Of a stretch of DNA of 64,000 bases, positions 14,733 to 36,034 are shown piece by piece. The stretch is taken from positions 1 through 64,000 of the IMG/VR virus record IMGVR_UViG_3300036715_001196. One strand, 5' to 3'. The position numbers were made by a program, and so were the translations under genes. This DNA is from a virus (taxonomy: Duplodnaviria > Heunggongvirae > Uroviricota > Caudoviricetes). How positions within the stretch are numbered: position 1 is the stretch's first letter; each line of letters starts with the position of its first letter. Below the pieces are notes generated by a model, which saw nothing but the letters and a program-made list of their open reading frames with translations, made no database searches and had not been told where the DNA came from.

Positions 14733-14933
14733 ATGAAATCACTAATTTTTGAATATAACAGTGCAAATAATCGGAACAACTATTATGATATCAGACATTT
14801 AATGATTCAATGGTGTAAAGAAAATGATATGAGTGTCGATACTAGAGGTACTATCTTTGGTACTATATTTGTATTTAATTTAGATCACGAAGGCTTATTA
14901 TTTAAATTAAATTTTAGTGAATACATATCATGA
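14733..14933 (+). CDS. small hypothetical protein, LKLRYG-family relative (C-term EGLLFKLNFSEYIS)
   Basis: 66-aa ORF. A degenerate paralog fragment (…EDVLLFKLRFNGY…) lies just upstream at about 14654-14752. Confidence 0.3.
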   Translation: MKSLIFEYNSANNRNNYYDIRHLMIQWCKENDMSVDTRGTIFGTIFVFNLDHEGLLFKLNFSEYIS

Positions 14934-15044: not shown

Positions 15045-15581
15045 TTATTCAGGCACTGCAAGCAATCGCACTAACATCCTGACACTCTCGGATATGGAAT
15101 GACAATTGGTATCAATTTCTAAATCTGCATTTACAGGTATTTCATATGGCGATGTAATACCCGTGAAATGTTCTATCTGCAGCGCACGCGCTTTTTTATA
15201 CATACCTTTCGGGTCTCGCTGTTCGCAAATCTCAAGAGGCGTTTTAATGTACACCAGGCGAAAATTTTCTTCGCCAATGATGATCTTGGCTATTTGGCGA
15301 TCTGCCTCAAACGGCGCAATTACGGGCACTATCACGACTAAACCTGCATCATTCATCAGACGCGACACTTCCGCAACACGCCGAACGTTTTCTGCGCGAT
15401 CTTCAACACTGAACCCCAGATCTTTATTGAGTCCTCGGCGTAGATGATCGCCATCTAACACGCAACATGGAATTTGCTGGTCGAGTAAACACTTTTCAAA
15501 ATGCTGTGCCAAGGTTGACTTGCCGGATCCACTCAGACCAGTCAGCCAAATTGTCACGGCGGCGTTCTTTCGAAAAATCAT
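15045..15581 (-). CDS. cysC: adenylyl-sulfate (APS) kinase
   Basis: P-loop LTGLSGSGKSTLA and overall length/architecture of CysC-type APS kinase. Confidence 0.8.
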   Translation of the reverse strand: MIFRKNAAVTIWLTGLSGSGKSTLAQHFEKCLLDQQIPCCVLDGDHLRRGLNKDLGFSVEDRAENVRRVAEVSRLMNDAGLVVIVPVIAPFEADRQIAKIIIGEENFRLVYIKTPLEICEQRDPKGMYKKARALQIEHFTGITSPYEIPVNADLEIDTNCHSISESVRMLVRLLAVPE

Positions 15582-15676: not shown

Positions 15677-17227
15677 TTATCCCTTTGTCCAGACATAAAC
15701 AGCATTACCCGAATTCCAATATCTATCAAACCCGTTATTTCGCATATTTTCCCAGGCTGACAAACTACTATCAAATATATTAAGCACATTTTTTAATTTA
15801 TATTTTTGATATTTTATTCTAGATTCTAATGTTTTATAGTTATGTGTATATACATAGGAAGCAGGATTATTTCGTATGTGCTTAAATCCTAATTTTTCAT
15901 AAACCTTTCCGGTTCCCCATCGTAAATCACAAAACGAGACTACATCTGATGCATTTAAACATTGAGTTGCAAAATTAAATAATTTTGAAGCTCCACCTAT
16001 TACATTAATATTTAATTCATTACAAAACCTAATTAATTCATATTGGTGCCTGTTATATCTAGATTTGCCTAAACTTATCGCAGCAACTAATCTTCCTTCA
16101 TAATGCAGGCCTGCATAAAAAGACGCACCGGTGTGGCCTTGTATATGGTTTTCATTAAAAAATCTTGCTGCAATTTTCTTATCGATTATATTAACTGTAG
16201 TCTTCCTTGCATATATTCGAGAGCTAACACCTACAAATGATGCTATCCTAGATTTTACTAAATCTCGCTTATTGTTCCACTCTATATCTATAATATGATA
16301 TAATTTTATACCTACAGATTTTGCAACTGAATCTTTTTCGGTGTGATAATTAATTTTATTTGCCGACTCTTCTGAATGCCAAAAAATACCGTCATATTCA
16401 AAACCAATTCCTAATTCGGGTAAATAGATATCTATTTCTTTACCCGAAAGTGCTTTCCTATCATTGAAGATAATAGGACCACTATATATAGATGTTATGT
16501 AATCAAACATTTGTTGTTGGCCAACTGTTTGATGAATTTCAATACCTAAATTTTTAAATTGTACACAAAGTTGAGTATGCCCTACTTCTAATTTATCGGC
16601 TATCTCTTTTATGGATAATCCGCCGTCATACAATTCACTAAGCTTCTGTTTATCGTATTTGATATTGAACGATTCGTTACTAAGATGTTCTTGATTCTTT
16701 CTTATACGACCGTACCGTTCAATGCATGTATTTGTAATCTTTTCTTTGGTTGAACCAAGCATAGCGATATTAGTTACACCGTGTTCTTCAAACAGTCGGT
16801 CTTTTATTTCTTTTTGAACATTTGCTGACTTAAATGGATTATCGACGCCGAATTTTTCTATCATCTTTTTAGAATAATTTAATTTTGCAGCCTCTGTCAT
16901 TAATATAGTTTTTGAACCATATTTTTTTAAACACGTAGTTTCTATTCTATCTCTAATAGCTGTATCTGATTGTACACATTTAGGTGAACAGAAAATCCTG
17001 TATGAATTATTCTTATAATTCCAGTTAAGTGTATTACCACACTTACAGAATTTTTCTGTAAATTGATCATTTATAACATGCCATAACCGTTGCTTTGTTT
17101 TAGAATCAGGTGGTAGAAATGCAGTTTTTTCCTGAAGTGTTGCCATAAAGGTTTCGTTTGACATGAACGACTTTAATGCCTTAAAATTGCTATCTGCAAC
17201 ACAATAATCTTGTTTTGTAGGTCTCAT
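15677..17227 (-). CDS. large endonuclease-like protein with N-terminal Cys cluster, KYG repeats and a Vsr/PD-(D/E)xK-like core (paralog 1)
   Basis: KFCKCGNT...CSPKC zinc-finger-like N-terminus. Repeated KYG...DNP...K units. Core DIYLPELGIGFEYDGIFWHSE. C-terminal domain IYARK...HIQG...GGASKLF shared with ORF 22377-23864. Confidence 0.55.
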   Translation of the reverse strand: MRPTKQDYCVADSNFKALKSFMSNETFMATLQEKTAFLPPDSKTKQRLWHVINDQFTEKFCKCGNTLNWNYKNNSYRIFCSPKCVQSDTAIRDRIETTCLKKYGSKTILMTEAAKLNYSKKMIEKFGVDNPFKSANVQKEIKDRLFEEHGVTNIAMLGSTKEKITNTCIERYGRIRKNQEHLSNESFNIKYDKQKLSELYDGGLSIKEIADKLEVGHTQLCVQFKNLGIEIHQTVGQQQMFDYITSIYSGPIIFNDRKALSGKEIDIYLPELGIGFEYDGIFWHSEESANKINYHTEKDSVAKSVGIKLYHIIDIEWNNKRDLVKSRIASFVGVSSRIYARKTTVNIIDKKIAARFFNENHIQGHTGASFYAGLHYEGRLVAAISLGKSRYNRHQYELIRFCNELNINVIGGASKLFNFATQCLNASDVVSFCDLRWGTGKVYEKLGFKHIRNNPASYVYTHNYKTLESRIKYQKYKLKNVLNIFDSSLSAWENMRNNGFDRYWNSGNAVYVWTKG

Positions 17228-17374
17228 GTAATATTTATCTTTATTGCCGACGCCGGGTGTTAAAACAGATTATACCACTTGACGCAATAACAGAACTAGT
17301 ACATAATAGACACATACAAGATTTAAACACAAACTAAGTTTTTTCACAGTAGTACTTAAACAGGAGAGTTATAA

Positions 17375-18478
17375 ATGGCAGCTTCAGATGATACAGGTAT
17401 TCGCGCAGAACGCGCTCGTGACGTTCGCACACTTTTGATCCGTTGCATGGAAGTTGGTCGACCTGCAATGATATGGGGTGCACCTGGCGTCGGTAAATCA
17501 GATCTAATTGCTAGCATTGGTAAAGAGATGAATCGCCCAGTGATTGACATGCGTTTGCTCTTGCTGGAACCAACTGACATCAAAGGTATTCCGTATTTTG
17601 ATCCAGACACAAAAACAATGAAGTGGGCGCAACCAAGCGATTTACCAACTGAAACATTTTTGAGCAATGCAATTTTGTTCTTAGATGAAATCAATGCTGC
17701 TCCGCCAAGTGTTCAGGCCGCTGCATATCAGTTGATTTTGAATCGTCGCGTTGGCGAATATCATTTGCCAAAAAATGTGTCAATGTTGTGTGCAGGTAAT
17801 CGCGATAGCGACAAAGGTGTTACATATCGTATGCCGAGTCCGCTGGCAAATCGTCTGGTACACATTGAGATGCGTGCTGACTTCGAAGATTGGCAACAAT
17901 GGGCAATTATGTCCAAAGTTCATCCAGATGTTGTTGGTTTCTTGTCACACCACAAACAACACTTGTTCAACTTTAACCCAAGGTCGCCTGATAAGGCATT
18001 TGCTACACCACGTTCATGGGCGTTTGTATCACAGTTGATCTCCGACAATTTGCCAGAATCAATGAACACTACTTTGGTATCAGGTACGGTCGGGTCAGGC
18101 TTGGCAACTGAATTTACAGCACACCGCAAAGTGTCTGCTAAAATGCCAAAGGCTGAAGATGTGTTGTTGGGCAAAGAAAAATCATTGAACGTCAAAGAAC
18201 TGAGTGCTATGTACTCATTGACAATTTCATTGTGCTACACATTGCAAGAATGGTACCACCGAGCAGCAGATGTGCAAGAAACAGAATTTAGTATTGCTGA
18301 CTGGCACAAATGCGTTGACAACTTCTTTACATTCATGATGGATAATTTCCAAACTGAAATGACTGTATTGGGCGCGAAGGTTGCATTGCGTGATTACAAG
18401 TTGAAGATCAATCACCGTGATTTGAAAACGTTCAAGACATTTCATGACAAATTTGGATCTTATATCTTAGAGGACTAA
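17375..18478 (+). CDS. MoxR-like AAA+ ATPase
   Basis: Walker A GAPGVGKS, Walker B ILFLDEINAAPP, sensor-2-like LCAGNRD. MoxR/RavA-type architecture. Confidence 0.75.
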   Translation: MAASDDTGIRAERARDVRTLLIRCMEVGRPAMIWGAPGVGKSDLIASIGKEMNRPVIDMRLLLLEPTDIKGIPYFDPDTKTMKWAQPSDLPTETFLSNAILFLDEINAAPPSVQAAAYQLILNRRVGEYHLPKNVSMLCAGNRDSDKGVTYRMPSPLANRLVHIEMRADFEDWQQWAIMSKVHPDVVGFLSHHKQHLFNFNPRSPDKAFATPRSWAFVSQLISDNLPESMNTTLVSGTVGSGLATEFTAHRKVSAKMPKAEDVLLGKEKSLNVKELSAMYSLTISLCYTLQEWYHRAADVQETEFSIADWHKCVDNFFTFMMDNFQTEMTVLGAKVALRDYKLKINHRDLKTFKTFHDKFGSYILED

Positions 18479-18510
18479 GTTTCCGTCCAATGAATTTTCT
18501 TTAATTTAAA

Positions 18511-18540
18511 ATAAGCCCGCATAATGCGGGCTTATTTTAT
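18511..18540 (+). terminator. rho-independent terminator
   Basis: AAGCCCGC-ATAAT-GCGGGCTT followed by ATTTTATT. Confidence 0.7.
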
Positions 18541-18960
18541 TCATAATTGTTTAATTTTTGAGACGGATTCTCTACGCTAAATCTTTCTAAACAAGTCTCT
18601 TTATATTTTTCACGATTATTATAATTCTCGGTATCATACCTATCCTCTTTAGTTTTAGCTGCTTTAGCTAATCGAGGTTTTGCATTAGCTGTGTTCTTCT
18701 CTGAAACTGATTTTGCTACCGCTGGTATTTATAATTGATGACTGACTCCATATTTAGTTTGAAATGTTTCTTTCTTTGTATCTTTAACTGATTGGAGAGA
18801 ATTAGTTGCCTCTACTCCGTAATTAACTAAGTTACTTGTCTTTATTTTTGCCTGCACACTAACTGCATTTTTAGCTGATTGTATGCCTATTACATCCTTT
18901 ATAGTTTGTAGTTTAGAGACATTGTCAACCCCGTATAATAACATATTGGTCTCTTTTCTT
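18536..18960 (-). pseudogene. decayed remnant of a third KYG-repeat endonuclease-like paralog
   Basis: Minus-strand ORF 18729-18944 contains KYG-repeat units (YGVDNVSKLQTIKD, NYGVEATNSLQSVKD, KYGVSHQ). A further unit (KYKETCLERFSVENPSQKLNNYE) continues in a different frame below 18728. Frameshifted and truncated. Confidence 0.4.
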
Positions 18961-19245
18961 TTTGCTGTTATAGCAGCAATATCTTTATTTTATATGTATC
19001 TTTATACTTGAGTTTGGTTGAACTAGTTTTACATTCATCGCAGCAATATCTTTTATAATTTCCGTATTTGTCTTTCAAGGATGTGTTTGTGCATGTTCGG
19101 TTTTCGGTTTTCGCATTTGTGTGTTTTTATAATTCTAGACATTATTTCTCCATAATAGAATGTCTTAGTTTATAACATCATTTCTACCTAAGACCAATTA
19201 TTCATCACCTATTGACATATGTTTATAAACATGTAATAATACTAT

Positions 19246-19500
19246 ATGCAAGTTAAAAAGACAGAATTTAGGTTAGTGTTACTAAATGCAGGGACTACTA
19301 GTTCTGTGTGGCGAAACTTTAACACTGATATAATTAATAGTTATGGTAGTTCTTACAATCATTATACATGGAAGAAAACATTAGGATATGAACTTTCAAA
19401 ATATAATGCCGAATACACGTTTATGGATGATGATGCAAAGTTATGTGCATATTTCGAAACTGAAGAAGATATGGCTTTCTTTGTTCTTAAATGGAGTTAG
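19246..19500 (+). CDS. FETEED-family small protein, tandem copy 1 of 6
   Basis: 84 aa ending FETEEDMAFFVLKWS. Confidence 0.5.
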   Translation: MQVKKTEFRLVLLNAGTTSSVWRNFNTDIINSYGSSYNHYTWKKTLGYELSKYNAEYTFMDDDAKLCAYFETEEDMAFFVLKWS

Positions 19501-19501
19501 G

Positions 19502-19723
19502 ATGTATAAACTATTGATAGATATTAGTAACCTTAATGACTGGCGTACTCCGTTATTTGCTAAATTTGTTAATTCAGTCGGTTTAGAATTTGGTGGGCAC
19601 TGTAATTGGGATGATGTGCGTACTGCGCTATCTAGATACCATGCAATACTCGACGATTTTAAATGTAATCTTTTATTTGAAACTGAAGAAGACATGTCTT
19701 TCTTTGTACTCACTTATTCATAA
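19502..19723 (+). CDS. FETEED-family small protein, copy 2
   Basis: MYKLLIDIS..., ends LFETEEDMSFFVLTYS. ATG 1 nt after the upstream stop. Confidence 0.5.
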   Translation: MYKLLIDISNLNDWRTPLFAKFVNSVGLEFGGHCNWDDVRTALSRYHAILDDFKCNLLFETEEDMSFFVLTYS

Positions 19724-19938
19724 TGAAATATATCTTAGATGTTACTGGTATTCACAAAGATGTATGGTATAATTTTATAGGCCATGTAATTGAATTATTT
19801 GTGGACATACACCGACTACCTGATCTTAATACTGTGTTAATTACCGAATTATCAAAATATAAAGGATTAATTAGCAACAAAGGATTAAGCTTTGAAACTG
19901 AAGAGGACGCAACTTATTTTGTACTTAAATGGAATTAA
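19723..19938 (+). CDS. FETEED-family small protein, copy 3
   Basis: Ends FETEEDATYFVLKWN. Confidence 0.5.
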   Translation: MKYILDVTGIHKDVWYNFIGHVIELFVDIHRLPDLNTVLITELSKYKGLISNKGLSFETEEDATYFVLKWN

Positions 19939-19940
19939 TA

Positions 19941-20180
19941 ATGGTTATATTACTTATAGATGACCCGAACAATAAAGACCACTCAGGATGTTGGTGTACT
20001 CCATTATGGTTAAATTTTACAGACTCTATTACAGGAAAACATAGGTCTTTCGATAATAACGACTGGACCAAGATACTTAGAGAATTAAACAGATTAGATA
20101 TATGTGTAGATAACGGTTTAAATTATCTCATATTTAAATCCGAAGTAGACAAATTAGCATTTGCACTTAAGTGGGGTTAG
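19941..20180 (+). CDS. FETEED-family small protein, copy 4 (divergent)
   Basis: Ends FKSEVDKLAFALKWG. Same length class and position in the array. Confidence 0.45.
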   Translation: MVILLIDDPNNKDHSGCWCTPLWLNFTDSITGKHRSFDNNDWTKILRELNRLDICVDNGLNYLIFKSEVDKLAFALKWG

Positions 20181-20181
20181 G

Positions 20182-20406
20182 ATGTATAAATTACTAATAT
20201 TTGATGCTAACGATAATGCCTGTTATACTAAAGTATTTAAGAATTTTCATAAAGAATTATTAGAAGAGTTTGGTTGCAACGTAACATGGACTGATGCAGA
20301 GTCAATACTTAAACCAAGGTACGATGCCTTACTTGATGAATTCTATGATAATATTTTATTTAATTCTGAAGAAGACATGACTTTCTTTGTACTTACTTAT
20401 TCATAA
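20182..20406 (+). CDS. FETEED-family small protein, copy 5
   Basis: MYKLLIFDAN..., ends FNSEEDMTFFVLTYS. Confidence 0.5.
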   Translation: MYKLLIFDANDNACYTKVFKNFHKELLEEFGCNVTWTDAESILKPRYDALLDEFYDNILFNSEEDMTFFVLTYS

Positions 20407-20663
20407 TGGCTCATATTTTAAAAAGTGCAGTTAATAAGGCATATATCTTAAAAACACGACCATTGTCTAACCAGACATCTAATATATGGCGAAATTTTTA
20501 TAATGATACATTTTTTGGCCGGAACTTAGCAGAAGTTGTAAATATAGATGGTTGTCTTGAAATAGAACTTTTAAAATATAATGCTACTATTGATAATTCA
20601 TGGCACGAAATTCTATTTGAAACTGAAGAAGATATGACATTCTTTGTACTTAAGTGGTCTTGA
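20406..20663 (+). CDS. FETEED-family small protein, copy 6
   Basis: Ends FETEEDMTFFVLKWS. Confidence 0.5.
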   Translation: MAHILKSAVNKAYILKTRPLSNQTSNIWRNFYNDTFFGRNLAEVVNIDGCLEIELLKYNATIDNSWHEILFETEEDMTFFVLKWS

Positions 20664-20687
20664 CATCTTACACTGTTATGCTATAAT
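20660..20687 (+). promoter_or_regulatory. sigma70-type promoter (TTGACA-N16-TATAAT)
   Basis: TTGACATCTTACACTGTTATGCTATAAT upstream of ORF 20741. Confidence 0.5.
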
Positions 20688-20740
20688 ATAACTATATACA
20701 GATTAGAAGAATCTGTAGTATTAAAATTAAGAGGCGAATA

Positions 20741-20983
20741 ATGGCACGATATACATTAAAGACATTTTATGGTTCTAAACCAGTTGAAAGATTTGACCAC
20801 AGAAAGCCTGAAAAATTAAGAAGCATTATATCACATCCGCGGTTTTCTAAATTAACAGAAACAGATGCATACGGGGTAGTTGACGAGGTTCCTGATCTTT
20901 TCGAAGTATATGATTCATACATGGAAAAAGTCCATTCTGGTAATTTAACTGATACATGCACATTTATTAAGACATTAAAATAA
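20741..20983 (+). CDS. hypothetical protein
   Basis: 80-aa ORF with GAGGCGAATAATG RBS. Confidence 0.4.
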   Translation: MARYTLKTFYGSKPVERFDHRKPEKLRSIISHPRFSKLTETDAYGVVDEVPDLFEVYDSYMEKVHSGNLTDTCTFIKTLK

Positions 20984-20986
20984 AAT

Positions 20987-21454
20987 ATGTCTAATCTATG
21001 GGATCACTTACCAAATGCAAAACATATTGATGCAATACTTGCATCAGTTAAAGCACACCCGGAAGAATGGAGTGCGGCGTGGGATGCGACAAGTGGTGCG
21101 GCGTGGGGTGCGGCAAGGAATGCGGCAAGGCGCGCGGCGTGGGAGGCGGCAAGGGATGCCGCCTCGGATGCGGCAGGTGGTGCGGCAAGGGTTGCGGCAT
21201 ATTATGCGGCAAGGGATGCGGCGTGGGATGCGGCAAGGGATGCGGCAAGTAGTGCGGCAAGTGGTGCGGCAAGTAGTGCGGCGTGTGATGCAATACTTGC
21301 CCTTATTGCATATGATGATTGCGCATATATGCTCGACTCACATCCGGGTGAACTTGAAATCCTTGCTAAGTTTGGTGATGAAAGAGCAATACTTTTATTA
21401 CCTGCATGTAAGGCATTTGCAGCTATTAAGATACATAAACCAGTTATTGCTTAA
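20987..21454 (+). CDS. HEAT-like repeat protein, family A member 3
   Basis: [28 protein letters not shown]. Long A/R/D/W/S repeat core. Conserved C-term. Stop overlaps the TTAACA -35. Confidence 0.8.
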   Translation: MSNLWDHLPNAKHIDAILASVKAHPEEWSAAWDATSGAAWGAARNAARRAAWEAARDAASDAAGGAARVAAYYAARDAAWDAARDAASSAASGAASSAACDAILALIAYDDCAYMLDSHPGELEILAKFGDERAILLLPACKAFAAIKIHKPVIA

Positions 21455-21479
21455 CAAATGATTCCAAGTATCATATAAT
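21451..21479 (+). promoter_or_regulatory. family-A cassette promoter (TTAACA-N17-TATAAT)
   Basis: TTAACAAATGATTCCAAGTATCATATAAT followed by the conserved UTR ACTACACATTAAACAAGCAGGAGCATAAAATG. Confidence 0.6.
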
Positions 21480-21509
21480 TACTACACATTAAACAAGCAG
21501 GAGCATAAA

Positions 21510-21929
21510 ATGCCTAATCTATGGGATCACTTACCAAATGCGAAACATATTGATGCAATACTTGCATCAGTTAAAGCACACCCAAAAGAATGGGGTGCGG
21601 AGTGGAATGCGGAGTGGGATGCGGCGTGGGATCGGGCAAGGGGTGCGGCGTGGGATGCGGCAAGGGAAGCGGCAAGGGAAGCGGCTAGGGATGCGGCGTG
21701 GGGTGAAGCAAGGGATGCGACATGGGATGCGGCATATTATGCGGCAAGGGTTGCGGCATGGGATGCAATCATTGCCCTTATTGCATATGACGATTGTGCA
21801 TATATGCTTGATTCAGATCTAGGTGAACTTGAAATACTTGCTAAATTCGGTGATGAGAGAGCAATTTTATTATTACCTGCATGTAAGGCATTTGCAGCTA
21901 TTAAGGAAAAAACATATGTCAATAGTTGA
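21510..21929 (+). CDS. HEAT-like repeat protein, family A member 4
   Basis: [28 protein letters not shown]. Repeats. Conserved C-term. Confidence 0.8.
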
Positions 21930-22359
21930 AAATAAAAAAGCATTTTACGATTATGGCATAGAAGAACAATTTGAAGCTGGCCTAATTCTACAAGGTTGGG
22001 AAGTAAAAGCAATTCGTGCGGGTCAGGTACAATTAAAAGAAGCCTATATAATTATCAAAGGCGAAGAATTGTATTTATTTGGGGCACATATAAGGTCACT
22101 TATAACGACCTCAACAACTGTTAATACTGATCCTATACGCTCACGCAAATTACTGTTAAAATCTGCAGAAATTAGTAAGCTCATAGGTAAGGTTACACGA
22201 GCCGGATATACTCTCGTACCGCTCAACCTACATTTTCAAAATGGTAAAATTAAATGTCAAGTTGGATTAGCTAAAGGTAAGAGATTGTATGATAAGCGCC
22301 AAACAGAAAAAGAACGTGATTGGCAACGTGAACAACAAAAAATTTTAAAACAGAGATAA
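21916..22359 (+). CDS. smpB: SsrA-binding protein SmpB
   Basis: Near-collinear match to bacterial SmpB: KKAxxDY.IEE..EAG..L.G.EVK..R.G...L...Y, then DP.R.RKLLL...EI.KL.GKV...GYTLVPL.L.F.NG..K...LAKGK.L.DKR...K.RDWQRE. Start overlaps the end of the family-A gene. Confidence 0.8.
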
Positions 22360-22376
22360 TAACACACAAATAATGT

Positions 22377-23864
22377 ATGATAGGCATATTAAGAAACCTA
22401 TATAACACTACATCTGCAAATATCCTTGCAATTACATTAAAGCATAAACATAAAGAAATTTATGATTGGGTGATCTCTTCTACTGACGATAATTTTTTAA
22501 CATTCAACGAACGTGTTTTTTGGTTATTAAACCCATCTAATATTATCTGTGAAAATAATAAAAGACTAAAATATGTAGCAAAAAGAAAAGAATACGGTTT
22601 TTGTGGCGGACCGAATACATGTGAATGTCACAAGGCAGAAATTAAAGATCGAACCAGTAAAACCACTGTATTCGGCACCGAGGATTTTCTTGAGAAGAGA
22701 AAAGAAACCTGGACTGAAAAATACGGAACTGATAATCCGCAAAAATTACAAGAATACAAAGATTCGGCTACAGAAAGAAATACAGGTAAAGTGCATACTA
22801 AAGGTAAAAGACTCGAATATGTCGCAGATGGATATAATAAAGTCATAGCAAGGTTAAAGGACGAGTTCATACCCTTATTCACTGTAGACGAATACTTAGG
22901 CTCCGATCGTAAAAACGTATATAAATGGCAATGTGTTAAATGCTCTAAGATTGTTGATTCGCACATAGACTACGAAACTGTTCCAAGATGTACAATCTGT
23001 AATCCAAAAGAAGTGTCGACACCCGAACACGAATTAAGAGAGTATCTTGATTCATTTAATATCGCATATGAATGCAATGTTACAAACATTATTCCACCGC
23101 TTGAATTAGACATTTTTGTACCTACATTAAATGTTGCTATAGAGCACAACGGAACCTACTGGCATTCTTCAAAGAAAAAAGATAAAAATTATCATATTAA
23201 CAAATACAATATATGTAAAGAAAAAGGCATACACCTTATTCAGATATTCGGCGACCAATGGAAAAATAAACAAGATATTGTTAAAGCTAGATTAAAAAAT
23301 GTACTAGGTGTTGATACTAAAATTTATGCACGTAAATGCGATATAAAAGTTATAACAGGTAAAGAAAGTAAATTATTTTTAGATGAGCACCACATTCAAG
23401 GATGGGTATCGTCTAGTATAAAGTTAGGATTATTCTTTAACGATAATCTAGTTGCAGTAATGACATTTGGTAAACCTCGGTACGGAAATTTACAATCTTA
23501 CGAACTTTTACGATTTTGTTCTATCAATACCATTGTTGGTGGTGCTGATAAACTTTTCAAATACTTTTTAAGAAACTATAAACCTGATACTGTTGTCTCG
23601 TATGCCGATCGTTGCTGGTCGGCAGGTAATTTATATAAAAAATTAGGATTTAAAGATGTAACTGAGGATAAAAATAATATTGGGTACTTTTATATAAAAA
23701 ACGATACACGGATTAATAGGCTAGCATATACTAAGAAAAAATTAGTTAGTTTAGGTTTTGATTCAGAAAAAACCGCAGAAGAAATATTAGAATCTGAAGG
23801 ATTTCTATTAATCCATACCTGCGGCAATTATAAATTTATCTACGACAATAATCGCTTGACGTAA
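22377..23864 (+). CDS. large endonuclease-like protein with KYG repeats and a Vsr/PD-(D/E)xK-like core (paralog 2)
   Basis: Cys cluster CGGPNTCECH. KYG-type repeats (TEKYGTDNPQKLQEYKD). C-terminal IYARKCDIKVI...HHIQGW...GGADKLF collinear with the minus-strand paralog at 15677-17227. Confidence 0.55.
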   Translation: MIGILRNLYNTTSANILAITLKHKHKEIYDWVISSTDDNFLTFNERVFWLLNPSNIICENNKRLKYVAKRKEYGFCGGPNTCECHKAEIKDRTSKTTVFGTEDFLEKRKETWTEKYGTDNPQKLQEYKDSATERNTGKVHTKGKRLEYVADGYNKVIARLKDEFIPLFTVDEYLGSDRKNVYKWQCVKCSKIVDSHIDYETVPRCTICNPKEVSTPEHELREYLDSFNIAYECNVTNIIPPLELDIFVPTLNVAIEHNGTYWHSSKKKDKNYHINKYNICKEKGIHLIQIFGDQWKNKQDIVKARLKNVLGVDTKIYARKCDIKVITGKESKLFLDEHHIQGWVSSSIKLGLFFNDNLVAVMTFGKPRYGNLQSYELLRFCSINTIVGGADKLFKYFLRNYKPDTVVSYADRCWSAGNLYKKLGFKDVTEDKNNIGYFYIKNDTRINRLAYTKKKLVSLGFDSEKTAEEILESEGFLLIHTCGNYKFIYDNNRLT

Positions 23865-23915
23865 AAACACATATACCGTATAATTTACACACCTACTTAC
23901 TTAACAAGGAAAATC

Positions 23916-25097
23916 ATGGCAAACAACAACTCAAAAGAAGCTGTTTTAGACCAGTTGACACGAGCACGCATCTCCCTTTTATTAAAACAGCCGTTTTGGG
24001 GAACTCTTGCAACTCGGTTGATCTTAAAAGATGCAACCGACGAAGAGTGGTGCAACACTGCTGCTACAGACGGTCGATATTTCTACTACAACCGGGATTT
24101 TATTAGCAAATTAACTAAACCGGAAACAGTGTTTTTGGTAGCTCATGAAGTAGAACATTGCGTCTACGACCACATGAGTCGTCGTGGTAGTCGTAGACCG
24201 CAGATGTGGAATGCTGCTGCTGACTATGTAATTAATTATGAGCTGCACGAATTTGGTGTAGGTGAATTACCTAATCCAAAGACATCTGGTGTTCAGGCAT
24301 GTTTTGATGCAAAATATAAAGGCATGTTTGCTGAAGAAGTTTACGAATTGTTGTTAAAAGCCCCCGATGCAAAATTTCCAGAATTTGACATTCACTTGGA
24401 ACCAGGTGATAGCAAAGGTGAGCCGATGACTGAAGAAGAACGTCGAGTATTAGGTGACGAAATTCGTGGTGCTGTTATGCAAGCTGCTAAGGCTGCTGGT
24501 GCAGGTAATGTTCCTGCAGGTGTGAAACGCATGTTGAAAGACTTAACAAATCCACAAATGGATTGGCGCGAATTACTGAATATGCAGATTCGGTCAATGA
24601 TTAAAAATGATTTTACTTGGCAACGTTGTTCACGTAAGAGCCAAGCAAGTGGTATTTACTTGCCCGGTACAAAAGAAGACACTCGCATCGAAGCAGCAAT
24701 TGCAATCGACACATCTGGTTCAATGAGTGAAGATATGCTTCGTGATTTGTTAAGCGAAACAAAGGGCATTATGGAGCAATTTACAGACTTTAAATTGCGA
24801 GTATGGTGCTTTGATACAAAAGTTTATAATGAAGTTATGTTTACACCAGATAATATCGACGACATCGATACATACGAAATTAAGGGAGGTGGTGGCACAG
24901 ATTTTATTTGTAATTGGAAATACATGAAAGAAAACGACATCATGCCAGAACGCTTCGTTATGTTCACTGATGGTTATAATTGTCAAACATCATGGGGTGA
25001 TCCAGATTATTGTGATACTTTGTTTATTGTACACGGTGATCCGCACCACAAATTGCAAGGTGATTTTGGTACTACTGCCTGGTATCACAACGAGTAA
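23916..25097 (+). CDS. metallopeptidase-domain + VWA-domain protein (DUF2201-type partner of MoxR ATPases)
   Basis: HExxH zinc motif (VAHEVEHCVYDH) in the N-terminal half. MIDAS-type DTSGSMS motif in the C-terminal VWA half. Architecture typical of MoxR-associated VWA proteins. Confidence 0.7.
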   Translation: MANNNSKEAVLDQLTRARISLLLKQPFWGTLATRLILKDATDEEWCNTAATDGRYFYYNRDFISKLTKPETVFLVAHEVEHCVYDHMSRRGSRRPQMWNAAADYVINYELHEFGVGELPNPKTSGVQACFDAKYKGMFAEEVYELLLKAPDAKFPEFDIHLEPGDSKGEPMTEEERRVLGDEIRGAVMQAAKAAGAGNVPAGVKRMLKDLTNPQMDWRELLNMQIRSMIKNDFTWQRCSRKSQASGIYLPGTKEDTRIEAAIAIDTSGSMSEDMLRDLLSETKGIMEQFTDFKLRVWCFDTKVYNEVMFTPDNIDDIDTYEIKGGGGTDFICNWKYMKENDIMPERFVMFTDGYNCQTSWGDPDYCDTLFIVHGDPHHKLQGDFGTTAWYHNE

Positions 25098-25471: not shown

Positions 25472-25747
25472 TTGATGACAAACTCGTTATATTATAAAAT
25501 CAAAGACACTGTAGGTGCTGAAAAACATTATTTGTTAGAGTTATTCTTTAAAGATTGGGTAGACGAATCTTGTAATAATCAAGTTAATTACAAATTCGAA
25601 AGCAGAAGACAAAAGAATGGATCTACATTAGATGAAGAAGTTCTACGTGTCGATTTCGAAACACAAGAAGATGCTGTAATACTTACTTTAAAAGGTATTC
25701 CGGTAGAATTTCAAGATTATTTAGAAATAGTAAAATCCTCTACCTAA
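25472..25747 (+). CDS. hypothetical protein
   Basis: 91-aa ORF. Confidence 0.4.
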   Translation: MMTNSLYYKIKDTVGAEKHYLLELFFKDWVDESCNNQVNYKFESRRQKNGSTLDEEVLRVDFETQEDAVILTLKGIPVEFQDYLEIVKSST

Positions 25748-25779: not shown

Positions 25780-26370
25780 ATGTCCGACGTACTTATACTC
25801 AACGCAAGTGGGGAACCTAAGTCACTAATACCGCTTTCAGTAGTGCCGTGGCAAGATGCTGTACGTCTAGTTTTTCTTGATAAAGCAAGAGTGCTAAAGA
25901 ATTATGACAATTGGGTAGTTAGATCACAATATCTTGATATGCCAGTGCCGTCGATCATTATTATGACAGAGCAAGTTAAGTGGAATAAAACGCTTAAATA
26001 CAGCAGGCAAAACGTGTACTTAAGGGACGACTTTACATGCCAATTGCAAAGTACTCGCAGGTGTAAAGAAGTAAAAGGTAAGGTAAAAATTACCGAATTA
26101 ACAATTGATCACGTATTGCCAAAAAGTTTGGGCGGTAAAACAAACTGGACAAATGTTTGCACATCATGTAAGGATTGCAACAGCGACAAAGGTGCAGATA
26201 AATCAATTGTACCGAAGAAAATCCCGCATCGGCCATCTTACTATGAAATGCTAGCAAAAAGGAAACATTTGCCTATAACTATACGTGATGTTGAATGGAA
26301 GTGCTACATCGACTGGCCTGATGAGTTGATAAAGGTTTTACCACAACCAACAGGATCACCAAATGGCTAA
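25780..26370 (+). CDS. HNH endonuclease
   Basis: C..C ... DHVLPKSLGG..NWTN...CKDCNSDKG: HNH-type His/Asn and Cys-pair arrangement. Confidence 0.6.
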   Translation: MSDVLILNASGEPKSLIPLSVVPWQDAVRLVFLDKARVLKNYDNWVVRSQYLDMPVPSIIIMTEQVKWNKTLKYSRQNVYLRDDFTCQLQSTRRCKEVKGKVKITELTIDHVLPKSLGGKTNWTNVCTSCKDCNSDKGADKSIVPKKIPHRPSYYEMLAKRKHLPITIRDVEWKCYIDWPDELIKVLPQPTGSPNG

Positions 26371-34579: not shown

Positions 34580-35028
34580 AAGTCTATATAGCATTATTAA
34601 AAATAGATGTAAAGAAGGTTATTGCTGTTATATTAACTAGTAATTATAAATATAATGGCCAACTTGTATCATGCACTAAAACATATTGATCAGTTGCCAC
34701 CGCGGCAAGGTGGCAGCTAAAGACCATTGCAGCTGGTAGATCCCATAAGAAATATACAGGGCCGTTACACTTCGTGAAAATACAGAAAAAATTATACAGA
34801 AGATCTTTACCAATATTTAAGAAACTTTTCGAAGATAAATAAAATATATAGAAAATTGACAAACATAATACATTTATGTACAATAACAAGTAACAACACT
34901 AAGGAATACAATGAAAGAGCTTTTAACAATACTCTATTACGAATTTTATTGCAATTTTGTATTTTCTTTGTTATCTCCTCAATACATACAGGTATATTAT
35001 CCTGTATTACTTAGTTAACTAACATCTC

Positions 35029-35104
35029 CGGCGTTCGTATAGTGGATAATACAGCGTTCTTCTAAAGCGTGAACAGGGATTCGATTTCTCTACGCCGGAC
35101 CACA
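35029..35104 (+). pseudogene. tRNA-like remnant (intact acceptor and D arms, candidate UCU anticodon, broken T arm)
   Basis: CCGGCGT...ACGCCGG-A-CCA: a perfect 7-bp acceptor stem with 3' ACCA. D arm GTAT-AGTGGATA-ATAC. Anticodon loop CTTCTAA. No canonical T stem can be formed. Followed directly by a terminator. Confidence 0.25.
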
Positions 35105-35946: not shown

Positions 35947-36034
35947 GGGTCAGACGCACTATTGGAGGGATGCCCTGAACTCATAATTCAGTCGCGAAAG
36001 CGCCATGTCGGTTCGAACCCGACCTGACCTACCA
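35947..36034 (+). tRNA. tRNA, anticodon CAU (Met/Ile2-type) with an unusually long variable arm, encoded CCA
   Basis: Acceptor GGGTCAG/CTGACCT (G1-U72). D arm GCA-CTATTGGAGGGA-TGC. Anticodon arm CTGAA-CTCATAA-TTCAG (U33, CAU, A37). Extra arm CGCG-AAA-GCGC. T arm GTCGG-TTCGAAC-CCGAC. Discriminator A + CCA. 88 nt. Confidence 0.6.

Follow-up and report, generated by a model that had tools for sequence, protein, structure and literature searches.

How are we to understand two large, related nuclease genes that lie on opposite strands of a phage genome, with a decayed gene carrying the same repeats between them? The question is raised by IMG/VR virus record IMGVR_UViG_3300036715_001196, of which a 64,000 nucleotide (nt) stretch of phage DNA, here called the window, was analysed; coordinates count from its first letter. 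Judging from its sequence, the window belongs to a jumbo phage that is a distant relative of Pseudomonas phage PA5oct. A preliminary description had regarded two open reading frames (ORFs), copy A (15677..17227, minus strand, 516 amino acids) and copy B (22377..23864, plus strand, 495 amino acids), as collinear paralogs of a selfish, homing-endonuclease-like kind, and the ORF list places both at the coordinates and on the strands it gave. Our analysis indicates that A and B are probably intact Hef-type free-standing homing endonuclease genes with a classical homing mechanism. Their selfish nature is upheld by the fold of the nuclease domain, by alignment with a protein of the hef slot, and by fidelity to particular genomic slots combined with sporadic occupancy of them. 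Each protein appears to be built from a variable N-terminal module, presumably for DNA recognition, a Vsr-like/EDxHD nuclease and a Mom-like GNAT domain. Since both the family (as Hef/EDxHD proteins) and the fusion of nuclease and Mom-like domain (Iyer et al., 2021) are already described, the window contributes further members only.

The central domain of both proteins is a Vsr-like nuclease of the EDxHD type, which would be expected to cleave DNA. In copy B (23013..23306, plus strand) it is recognised by sequence and fold matches and carries E217, D245, E256, N258, H263, H273 and K276; in copy A (16232..16531, minus strand) it reads EIDIYLP..GFEYDGIFWHSE..YH..K and aligns with the nuclease of B in an alignment of 81 family sequences. 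By phmmer, the B nuclease matches the catalytic domain of I-Bth0305I (3r3p) at E 1.8e-4, and an AlphaFold2 model of B (mean pLDDT 93.8) matches the same structure in Foldseek with E 1.3e-4, TM 0.81, a root mean square deviation of 2.7 Å and 28% identity; the model also matches Vsr (1cw0; E 5e-3, Foldseek). A PDB sequence search with A gave no match. In the phmmer alignment E170, D196, N208, H213 and D222 of I-Bth0305I correspond to E217, D245, N258, H263 and H273 of B, so that the catalytic Asp (D196 of I-Bth0305I, D51 of Vsr) and His (H213 and H69) are represented by D245 and H263. Both are invariant in all 81 sequences, as are E256, H273 and K276, which gives the domain a set of D, E, H, H and K columns without a single exception. 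The first motif position (E170) is more permissive, being Glu in B (E217) and Gln in A, and Glu, Gln or His in 60, 19 and 2 family members respectively. Individual members match Pfam Vsr in 11 cases out of 81 and MTES_1575 in 43. The domain and fold searches assign a Vsr-like/EDxHD nuclease, and not some other function, to this region. The Vsr/PD-(D/E)xK-like core seen in the preliminary description is present in both proteins, but the motif quoted for it, FEYDGIFWHSE, is that of A, the corresponding stretch of B being IEHNGTYWHS.

The EDxHD family was defined on I-Bth0305I, and 'bacteriophage Hef type homing endonucleases' were assigned to it in the same work (Taylor et al., 2011). In phage U5, Hef takes the place of MobE at the locus between nrdA and nrdB, and the gene it cleaves is nrdB (Sandegren 2005, as cited in PMC2988022); the properties of Hef are given here as related in that paper and in PMC3239194. 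In Tequatrovirus G8 a family member of 530 amino acids lies exactly between nrdA and nrdB (L031:2872-4464), and residues 63-511 of A align with this protein at 33% identity (E 3e-46), with all modules covered. The likeness of A to Hef is drawn from this G8 slot protein, U5 Hef entering the comparison through its description in the citing paper. Hef and Hef-like proteins of T4-like phages (including F-Lim III/VII/VIII/X of phage LIMEstone1) have the same architecture of zinc ribbon, KYG repeats, Vsr-like nuclease and Mom-like domain, and their genes are likewise free-standing, intergenic, located beside conserved genes and present in several copies per genome. The window genes differ in belonging to a PA5oct-like jumbo phage, in having an AAA ATPase gene and a DUF2201 gene rather than nrdB as their slots and presumed targets, and in being only about 33% identical. 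Other genomes too carry members of the family lying between conserved genes (gp23 and gp24 in phage JC221 are an instance), and the number of matching places rises to 11 in Campylobacter phages; in PA5oct it is 5. I-Bth0305I itself shares the nuclease fold and has its DNA-binding region N-terminal of the nuclease, but it is intron-encoded, has 266 amino acids, ends with the nuclease and lacks a Mom-like domain, a zinc ribbon and a KYG array.

Public annotation of these proteins is in conflict, the labels including 'HNH endonuclease' (phrog_559), 'homing endonuclease', 'nuclease/acetyltransferase' and 'momylating enzyme'. The phrog_3339 family ('homing endonuclease') spans most of A (2e-103) and of B (4e-117). 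In many T4-like and jumbo phages the annotation given to family members is 'Hef-like homing endonuclease', whereas Acinetobacter phages have 'putative nuclease/acetyltransferase protein'. The phrog_559 family, labelled 'HNH endonuclease', matches these Vsr-like proteins at e-70 to e-84, and no HNH motif is present in them. Intron-encoded phrog_559 members in Bastillevirinae carry a VSR signature (PMC11878797), and the label appears to be a misnomer.

Further evidence comes from the distribution of the genes. As there is no near-identical DNA to the window among catalogued phages, relatives were gathered at the protein level, and about 16 distinct related genomes (referred to by L numbers) were mapped around the pair formed by the AAA ATPase and DUF2201 genes. 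The ATPase gene (17375..18478, plus strand; MoxR/CobS-like, Pfam AAA_3/AAA_5) is the conserved flank of two slots and its product is 49-82% identical across all relatives; the DUF2201 gene (23916..25097, plus strand; metallopeptidase-like and VWA-like, Pfam DUF2201_N 1e-39, DUF2201 3e-13) flanks a third. Between the window and PA5oct the identity is 56% for the ATPase, 49% for DUF2201 and 44% for B. Across these genomes A-type genes invariably adjoin the ATPase start and B-type genes the DUF2201 start, each in some genomes only.

Slot 1, directly upstream of the ATPase start, holds A-type genes (53-63% identical) that are divergent from the ATPase gene in the window (copy A), L009 and L016 and co-oriented with it in L010-14 and L021; it is empty in L015, L017, L018, L020, L022, L023, L003-7, L024 and PA5oct. 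Slot 2, directly downstream of the ATPase gene, holds a gene of the full DUF7487 type in L003-5, L009-12 and L019/20, a remnant in the window and a fragment in L016, and is empty in the remaining loci mapped, L022 excepted. Slot 3, about 50 nt upstream of DUF2201, holds B-type genes (44-56% identical) in the window (copy B, 51 nt upstream), L016, L003-7, L002 and PA5oct and is empty in L009-15 and L017-24. When the flanking proteins are concatenated and placed on a neighbour-joining tree, a genome with the gene and one without it repeatedly turn out to be nearest neighbours (L017/L010, L019/L016, L015/L009 and L023/L003). The genes are thus syntenic where present but absent from close relatives: L015, L017, L018 and L023, whose ATPase is 79-82% identical to that of the window, have none of the three endonuclease genes. 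The empty B site of L019 is clean, homology stopping at the SmpB stop codon and restarting at the DUF2201 ATG with a small unrelated ORF between. In slot 2 of L016 (11149-13455) a fragment of a C-terminal domain (60% identity to residues 240-321 of the L010 protein) is followed by a different, 663-amino-acid Hef-like gene, which looks like the replacement of one endonuclease gene by another. Comparison of presence and absence across the relatives therefore gives the pattern expected of homing genes, that is, fixed slots, sporadic occupancy that differs between close relatives, either orientation, and decay. The first B homologues to be found all lay in the same slot, and the idea that B is syntenic and hence not mobile was dropped after closer relatives with empty slots came to light.

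Other forms of mobility were also considered. Target-site duplications and terminal inverted repeats flanking A or B were looked for and none was found; with clean junctions at the empty sites, a transposon-like element was rejected. An intron or intein context was rejected too: Rfam gives no intron, its only match being to a tRNA at a distance of 11 kb, and the ORFs on either side are intact. In PA5oct-like jumbo phages generally, the conserved ATPase/DUF2201 pair is a hotspot for genes of this sort, and this explains part, though not all, of the local mosaicism, some of which the preliminary description had thought such genes could account for. The spacer between ATPase and DUF2201 genes is 5.4 kb in the window against about 0.15-8 kb in relatives, but the endonuclease genes make up only about 2.1 kb of the 5.4 kb; the rest is other cargo, namely an array of paralogs, Ala-rich paralogs and SmpB.

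The decayed gene proved to have a separate origin. A third copy had been placed at 18536-18960 on the minus strand as a decaying member of the A/B paralogs; its frameshifted KYG fragments are real, but the remnant is longer (18558..19142, minus strand) and belongs elsewhere. It comprises the 5' two-thirds of a gene of the full DUF7487 type, with a zinc ribbon and KYG repeats. It starts at the ancestral start 'MSRIIKTHKCEN', encodes 'MSRIIKTHKCEN..', 'KDKYGNYKRYCCDECK..' and five KYG-type units, and ends at 'RFSVENPSQ', with two frameshifts, one in-frame stop and the last approximately 120 codons missing. The intact slot-2 proteins, which have 318-348 amino acids and occupy the same place in relatives, match the remnant at 51-55% identity over the repeat region in L003, L009, L010 and L019 (tblastn, frames -3/-1/-3, E down to 3e-49). 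The Pfam DUF7487 model covers the whole of such an intact protein, whereas A and B match its repeat part only. Its C-terminal domain has the PD-(D/E)xK-type motif YFPDIYIP..LIVEVKS and neither a Vsr-like nor a Mom-like domain; assignment as a nuclease is suggested by the YFPD..EVK motif together with weak matches to TnsA-like proteins (E 0.01) and phrog_15137 'endonuclease' (1.6e-6), and the intact protein has no PDB sequence match. Descent of the third copy from A or B was accordingly rejected: it is closest to the DUF7487-type proteins, a different nuclease family, and shares just the KYG module with A and B. Compared with the full-length DUF7487 proteins, the window copy is frameshifted and stop-bearing; its zinc ribbon and five KYG units are retained in broken form and the domain with the PD-(D/E)xK motif is deleted, so that on its sequence it is a pseudogene of that family and not a functional member. 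A perfect 16-bp inverted repeat that resembles a terminator hairpin (18507..18539) lies in the gap separating the stop codon of the ATPase gene from the point at which the remnant breaks off. For annotation of the genome, the outcome is that two of the genes are intact and of the Hef type, and the third is a pseudogene from another family of KYG-repeat nucleases.

What distinguishes A from B most clearly is the N-terminal region. The order of modules is the same in both, that is, a helical N-terminus, a four-Cys zinc ribbon and KYG units. The Cys cluster noted earlier at both N-termini is present (C61, C63, C80 and C84 in A; C58, C76, C82 and C84 in B), and the columns matching C58, C76 and C82 of B are invariant in the 81 homologues. 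In A, the zinc ribbon (16964..17053, minus strand) has short strands at residues 60-76 in the model, and its four Cys are kept without exception in 59 A-type sequences. It is followed by a KYG array (16685..16963, minus strand; KYGSKT, KFGVDNP, EHGVTNI and RYGRIRK) that matches Pfam DUF7487 positions 20-105 at E 9e-11. Three of its four units were found by regular expression and the fourth by eye, and a model of the N-terminal 232 residues (pLDDT 96.5) shows helices at 89-103, 112-126, 135-149 and 158-172, each of about 15 residues with a period of about 23. A helix cluster ahead of the nuclease of A (16532..16624, minus strand) may be helix-turn-helix (HTH)-like, with a weak match to Pfam HTH_7 (E 0.05) and weak local Foldseek matches (E > 0.3) to LuxR/FixJ, sigma region 4, TrpR and recombinase HTH folds; the LuxR/TrpR type is the HTH class noted for I-Bth0305I by Taylor et al. 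(2011). Copy B has a zinc ribbon (C58, C76, C82, C84) and then KYG units (VFGTED, KYGTDNP) on helices (22542..22856, plus strand; Pfam DUF7487, residues 80-137). In the place of the HTH-like cluster it has a second four-Cys zinc ribbon (C186, C189, C205, C208; 22917..23006, plus strand) with a beta hairpin at 181-196 in the model, the four Cys of which are kept in the PA5oct homologue. Tandem KYG repeats, reported for both proteins, are thus evident in A, with four units, but B has just two clear ones before the second ribbon. Because the KYG-containing N-terminal module of A has no significant structural counterpart in the PDB (fold search; best E 0.37), recognition of DNA by the array is put forward here as a plausible function.

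The relationship between A and B follows from these comparisons. Residues 264-513 of A and 243-489 of B are 39% identical over 254 amino acids (BLASTP, E 2e-50), and the BLAST alignment is restricted to this C-terminal part. The term collinear paralogs holds in that the nuclease and C-terminal domains are homologous and, in the 81-sequence family alignment, the N-termini are collinear in module order; it does not hold for the N-terminal halves as BLAST sees them, these having diverged beyond alignment. Judged by sequence features, the two halves are nevertheless the same kind of module. A search of the whole window with tblastn found no further full copies of A or B. As the A lineage is tied to the ATPase start and the B lineage to the DUF2201 start, A and B are separate orthologous lineages, each with its own slot, rather than recent duplicates scattered in the genome.

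Homing is favoured by the distribution as a whole: the slots are fixed but only sporadically filled, genes face either way in them, and some copies have decayed or been replaced, which is the pattern of free-standing homing genes. In the mechanism envisaged, a carrier phage and a related phage without the gene would meet in a mixed infection. Through its N-terminal module the enzyme would bind a long target within or next to the conserved neighbour, at the ATPase start in the case of A and the DUF2201 start in the case of B, which makes the ATPase gene a candidate target of copy A and the DUF2201 gene a candidate target of copy B. The Vsr-like domain would then cut this site in the empty-slot genome, and recombinational repair from the carrier genome would copy the endonuclease gene into the empty slot. 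Copies no longer spreading would decay, as the slot-2 gene of the window has done. A and B may still be mobile.

The simple homing scheme leaves aside the third part of these proteins. The common C-terminal domain noticed in the preliminary description (IYARK..HIQG..GGA[S/D]KLF) is real and strongly conserved, although its likeness to Mom went unrecognised there. It extends over 15689..16222 (minus strand) in A and 23316..23861 (plus strand) in B. Mom of phage Mu (PDB 8BV8) is a Gly-tRNA(Gly)-dependent DNA adenine N6 aminoacyltransferase, and it is the top PDB match of the B model (8bv8, Foldseek, E 3e-7), above all other GNATs, with 191-196 aligned columns of chains of 202-222 residues. Homology to Mom is supported by this fold match, by a match of the domain to phrog_1384 ('Mom-like DNA modification protein') at 1.4e-9 and by the 20 of 81 family members that individually match Pfam Mom (PF25680) at E < 0.01; B scores 17.7-21.1 bits, under the gathering cut-off of 27.1, and A gives no match. 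Mu Mom differs in being a stand-alone enzyme of about 230 amino acids instead of the C-terminus of a nuclease, and the sequence similarity is weak.

The residues essential for Mom are R111, S124, D149, R151 and Y159; S124A inactivates the enzyme, which is a dimer (PMC13219725), and R111 (numbered R101 in that study) is conserved in Mom homologues and not in GNATs generally (PMC7261163). Their equivalents were mapped by hhalign with a single Mom sequence, a weak alignment (probability 4%, E 0.01) that was used for mapping only and to which the following counts are subject. Y159 is Tyr in 81/81 and R111 is Arg in 80/81, A and B included in both cases. The S124 column has Ser in 57/81 and Gly in 19/81, with Ser in A and Asp in B (GGADKLF), while the D149 column has Asp in 65/81 (A and B among them) and Asn in 14/81. 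The R151 column is Arg in 36/38 A-type sequences and Cys in 30/43 B-type sequences with an Arg one residue earlier, A having Arg and B Cys. All five equivalents are therefore kept in A. In the B model helices 453-458 and 467-473 lie between the last strands, at approximately the site of the HTH-like insertion of Mom. The fused domain is widespread: 15,997 cluster representatives match it at E <= 0.001, of which 11,859 reach E <= 1e-10, and among the 150 best matches it is nearly always C-terminal in proteins of 400-700 amino acids. Among relatives such as P0236 (880 amino acids) and P0241 (1039 amino acids), some pair it with GIY-YIG (Pfam PF01541) and some show similarity to the query domain at two places; given such combinations, the Mom-like module may be paired with more than one nuclease class.

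Several observations sit uneasily with homing. The last Asp of the EDxHD motif (D222) matches an invariant His (H273) in the phmmer alignment. Pairwise identities of A and of B rise and fall with those of the genes beside them (Spearman 0.94 for A, 0.89 for B), which also fits vertical residence with repeated loss, although the flanks could have been co-converted and would then not be an independent marker. Residues of the ATPase and DUF2201 proteins specific to carriers are no more frequent than in random partitions, in a comparison of low power, DNA differences being saturated at this divergence. A simple homing model gives no reason for so large and strongly conserved a Mom-like domain, which in the literature has been taken for the modifying part of an enzyme of restriction-modification-like type (PMC7824862). 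Finally, homing activity of A, B and their close relatives is predicted from sequence and structural models.

What the Mom-like domain might do in a homing enzyme is a matter of candidates, which include dimerisation, DNA binding with base flipping and protective modification. We tentatively entertain the last of these in a specific form, as a possibility to which we lend limited credence. The domain would be an active adenine modifier, possibly dependent on aminoacyl-tRNA, that marks the enzyme's own site in the carrier genome and so confers self-immunity without change of the target; the same N-terminal module that guides the nuclease would, on this still doubtful view, also deliver the Mom-like domain to the recognition site. 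Such a hybrid is compatible with the conserved Mom-specific residues and with the lack of carrier-specific substitutions in the flanking genes. If correct, it would be a cross between homing endonuclease and restriction-modification enzyme in one polypeptide and would reconcile both published readings of the family, which have so far stood unconnected. The chemistry of Mom has been solved only recently, which brings the part played by the domain in a homing enzyme within reach of direct tests.

The second published reading concerns proteins of jumbo phages described as a 'Mom domain fused to REase-fold endoDNase', for which a restriction-modification-like role was predicted (Iyer et al., 2021, Viruses 13:63, PMC7824862). 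Very probably these are the same proteins as the A/B family: five 'momylating enzymes' were counted in PA5oct in that study, and a search with B likewise hits five places there, including the slot that B itself occupies. On that proposal the Mom-like domain of a single-chain enzyme hypermodifies adenines in the phage's own DNA, and DNA that lacks the modification, whether from the host or from a superinfecting phage, is attacked by the REase-fold nuclease fused to it (PMC7824862). The genes would then be weapons and shields and not homing elements, which we regard as unlikely for A and B. The correspondence of the five PA5oct enzymes speaks for it, as do the rank of Mom among the PDB matches of B, the conservation of the mapped residues (Arg at the Mom-specific R111 in 80/81, Tyr at Y159 in 81/81, Asp or Asn at D149 in 79/81, Ser at S124 in 57/81) and that of the domain at large (about 12,000 cluster representatives at E <= 1e-10), and the lack of carrier-specific target substitutions is compatible with protection by modification. 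However, one slot per sublineage, sporadic occupancy and decayed copies would not be expected of a genome-wide enzyme of defence or anti-defence, the long, variable, multi-module N-terminal regions suggest long specific sites, and the family member at the hef locus ties the family to demonstrated homing. Moreover, the equivalent of S124 is Gly in 19/81 and Asp in copy B, whereas S124A kills Mom. The slot-specific, sporadic distribution and the Hef/EDxHD identity are not discussed by Iyer et al. (2021). To our knowledge, momylation by any fused member has never been shown, and this too is counted against the proposal.

Long residence with repeated loss has to be weighed because the divergence of A and B correlates with that of the flanking genes. 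Under this explanation A and B would be vertically inherited phage genes that are no longer mobile and are kept for a role useful to the phage, such as repair or processing of DNA by the Vsr-like nuclease or DNA modification, their patchiness being due to loss; we judge it improbable. It accommodates the correlations just given, the intact ORFs with their invariant catalytic positions, and the occurrence of B-type genes in the same slot from the window to PA5oct, although the flanking proteins are just 49-56% identical. On the flank-gene tree, however, it implies that the genes were lost independently at least 5-8 times, in some cases within nearest-neighbour pairs, and the orientation flips of A-type and slot-2 genes are unexplained by loss alone. 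Furthermore, sequence change is much quicker in the endonuclease genes than in the genes next to them (55% against 80% identity), and pseudogenised and replaced copies show that selection for keeping them is weak or intermittent. That A and B are inactive relics heading for loss like the slot-2 remnant is most improbable, since the Asp at the S124 position of copy B, found in 2/43 B-type sequences only, is offset by full-length ORFs, the retention in both proteins of all invariant nuclease and C-terminal residues, and very confident models.

Directly downstream of copy A and on the same strand lies an adenylylsulfate (APS) kinase gene (15045-15581, minus strand; Pfam 7e-61). It is confined to this phage, being found in the window and L008 and in no relative, and is for this reason lineage-specific metabolic cargo beside a homing endonuclease gene. 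Downstream of DUF2201, an HNH endonuclease gene (25780-26370, plus strand; 53-75% identical) is present wherever the locus of a relative reaches far enough downstream, PA5oct included; unlike A and B, it has the look of a resident and not of a sporadic gene. A promoter-like sequence, TTGACG-N17-TATAAT (23856..23884, plus strand; 11/12 consensus), lies upstream of DUF2201 and overlaps the end of B; matches of this kind are no more enriched in the region than in shuffled sequence, and this one is suggestive only.

Within the ATPase-DUF2201 spacer, much of the variable length is taken up by a tandem array (19246-20663, plus strand) of six paralogous ORFs of about 70-110 amino acids that end in FETEEDMxFFVLKWS and have no Pfam match; weaker relatives lie at 25472-25747 and 14733-14933. 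The array is followed by two Ala/Asp/Trp-rich paralogs (20987-21454 and 21510-21929, plus strand; e.g. AAWDAARDAA), also with no Pfam match, whose DNA is duplicated at 79-81% identity and has a GC content of 0.48 against about 0.35 around it. Next comes an SmpB gene (21823-22359, plus strand; Pfam SmpB 4e-55 from residue 34), the true start of which is probably near 21916. SmpB is the partner protein of transfer-messenger RNA (tmRNA), and ARAGORN found no tmRNA gene in the window. The gene is also present in L019/L020, 73% identical from residue 32. Two tRNA genes lie on the plus strand, a tRNA-Met(CAT) at 35947-36034 and a tRNA-Arg(TCT) at 35028-35102, the latter being the only one to reach the Rfam gathering score.

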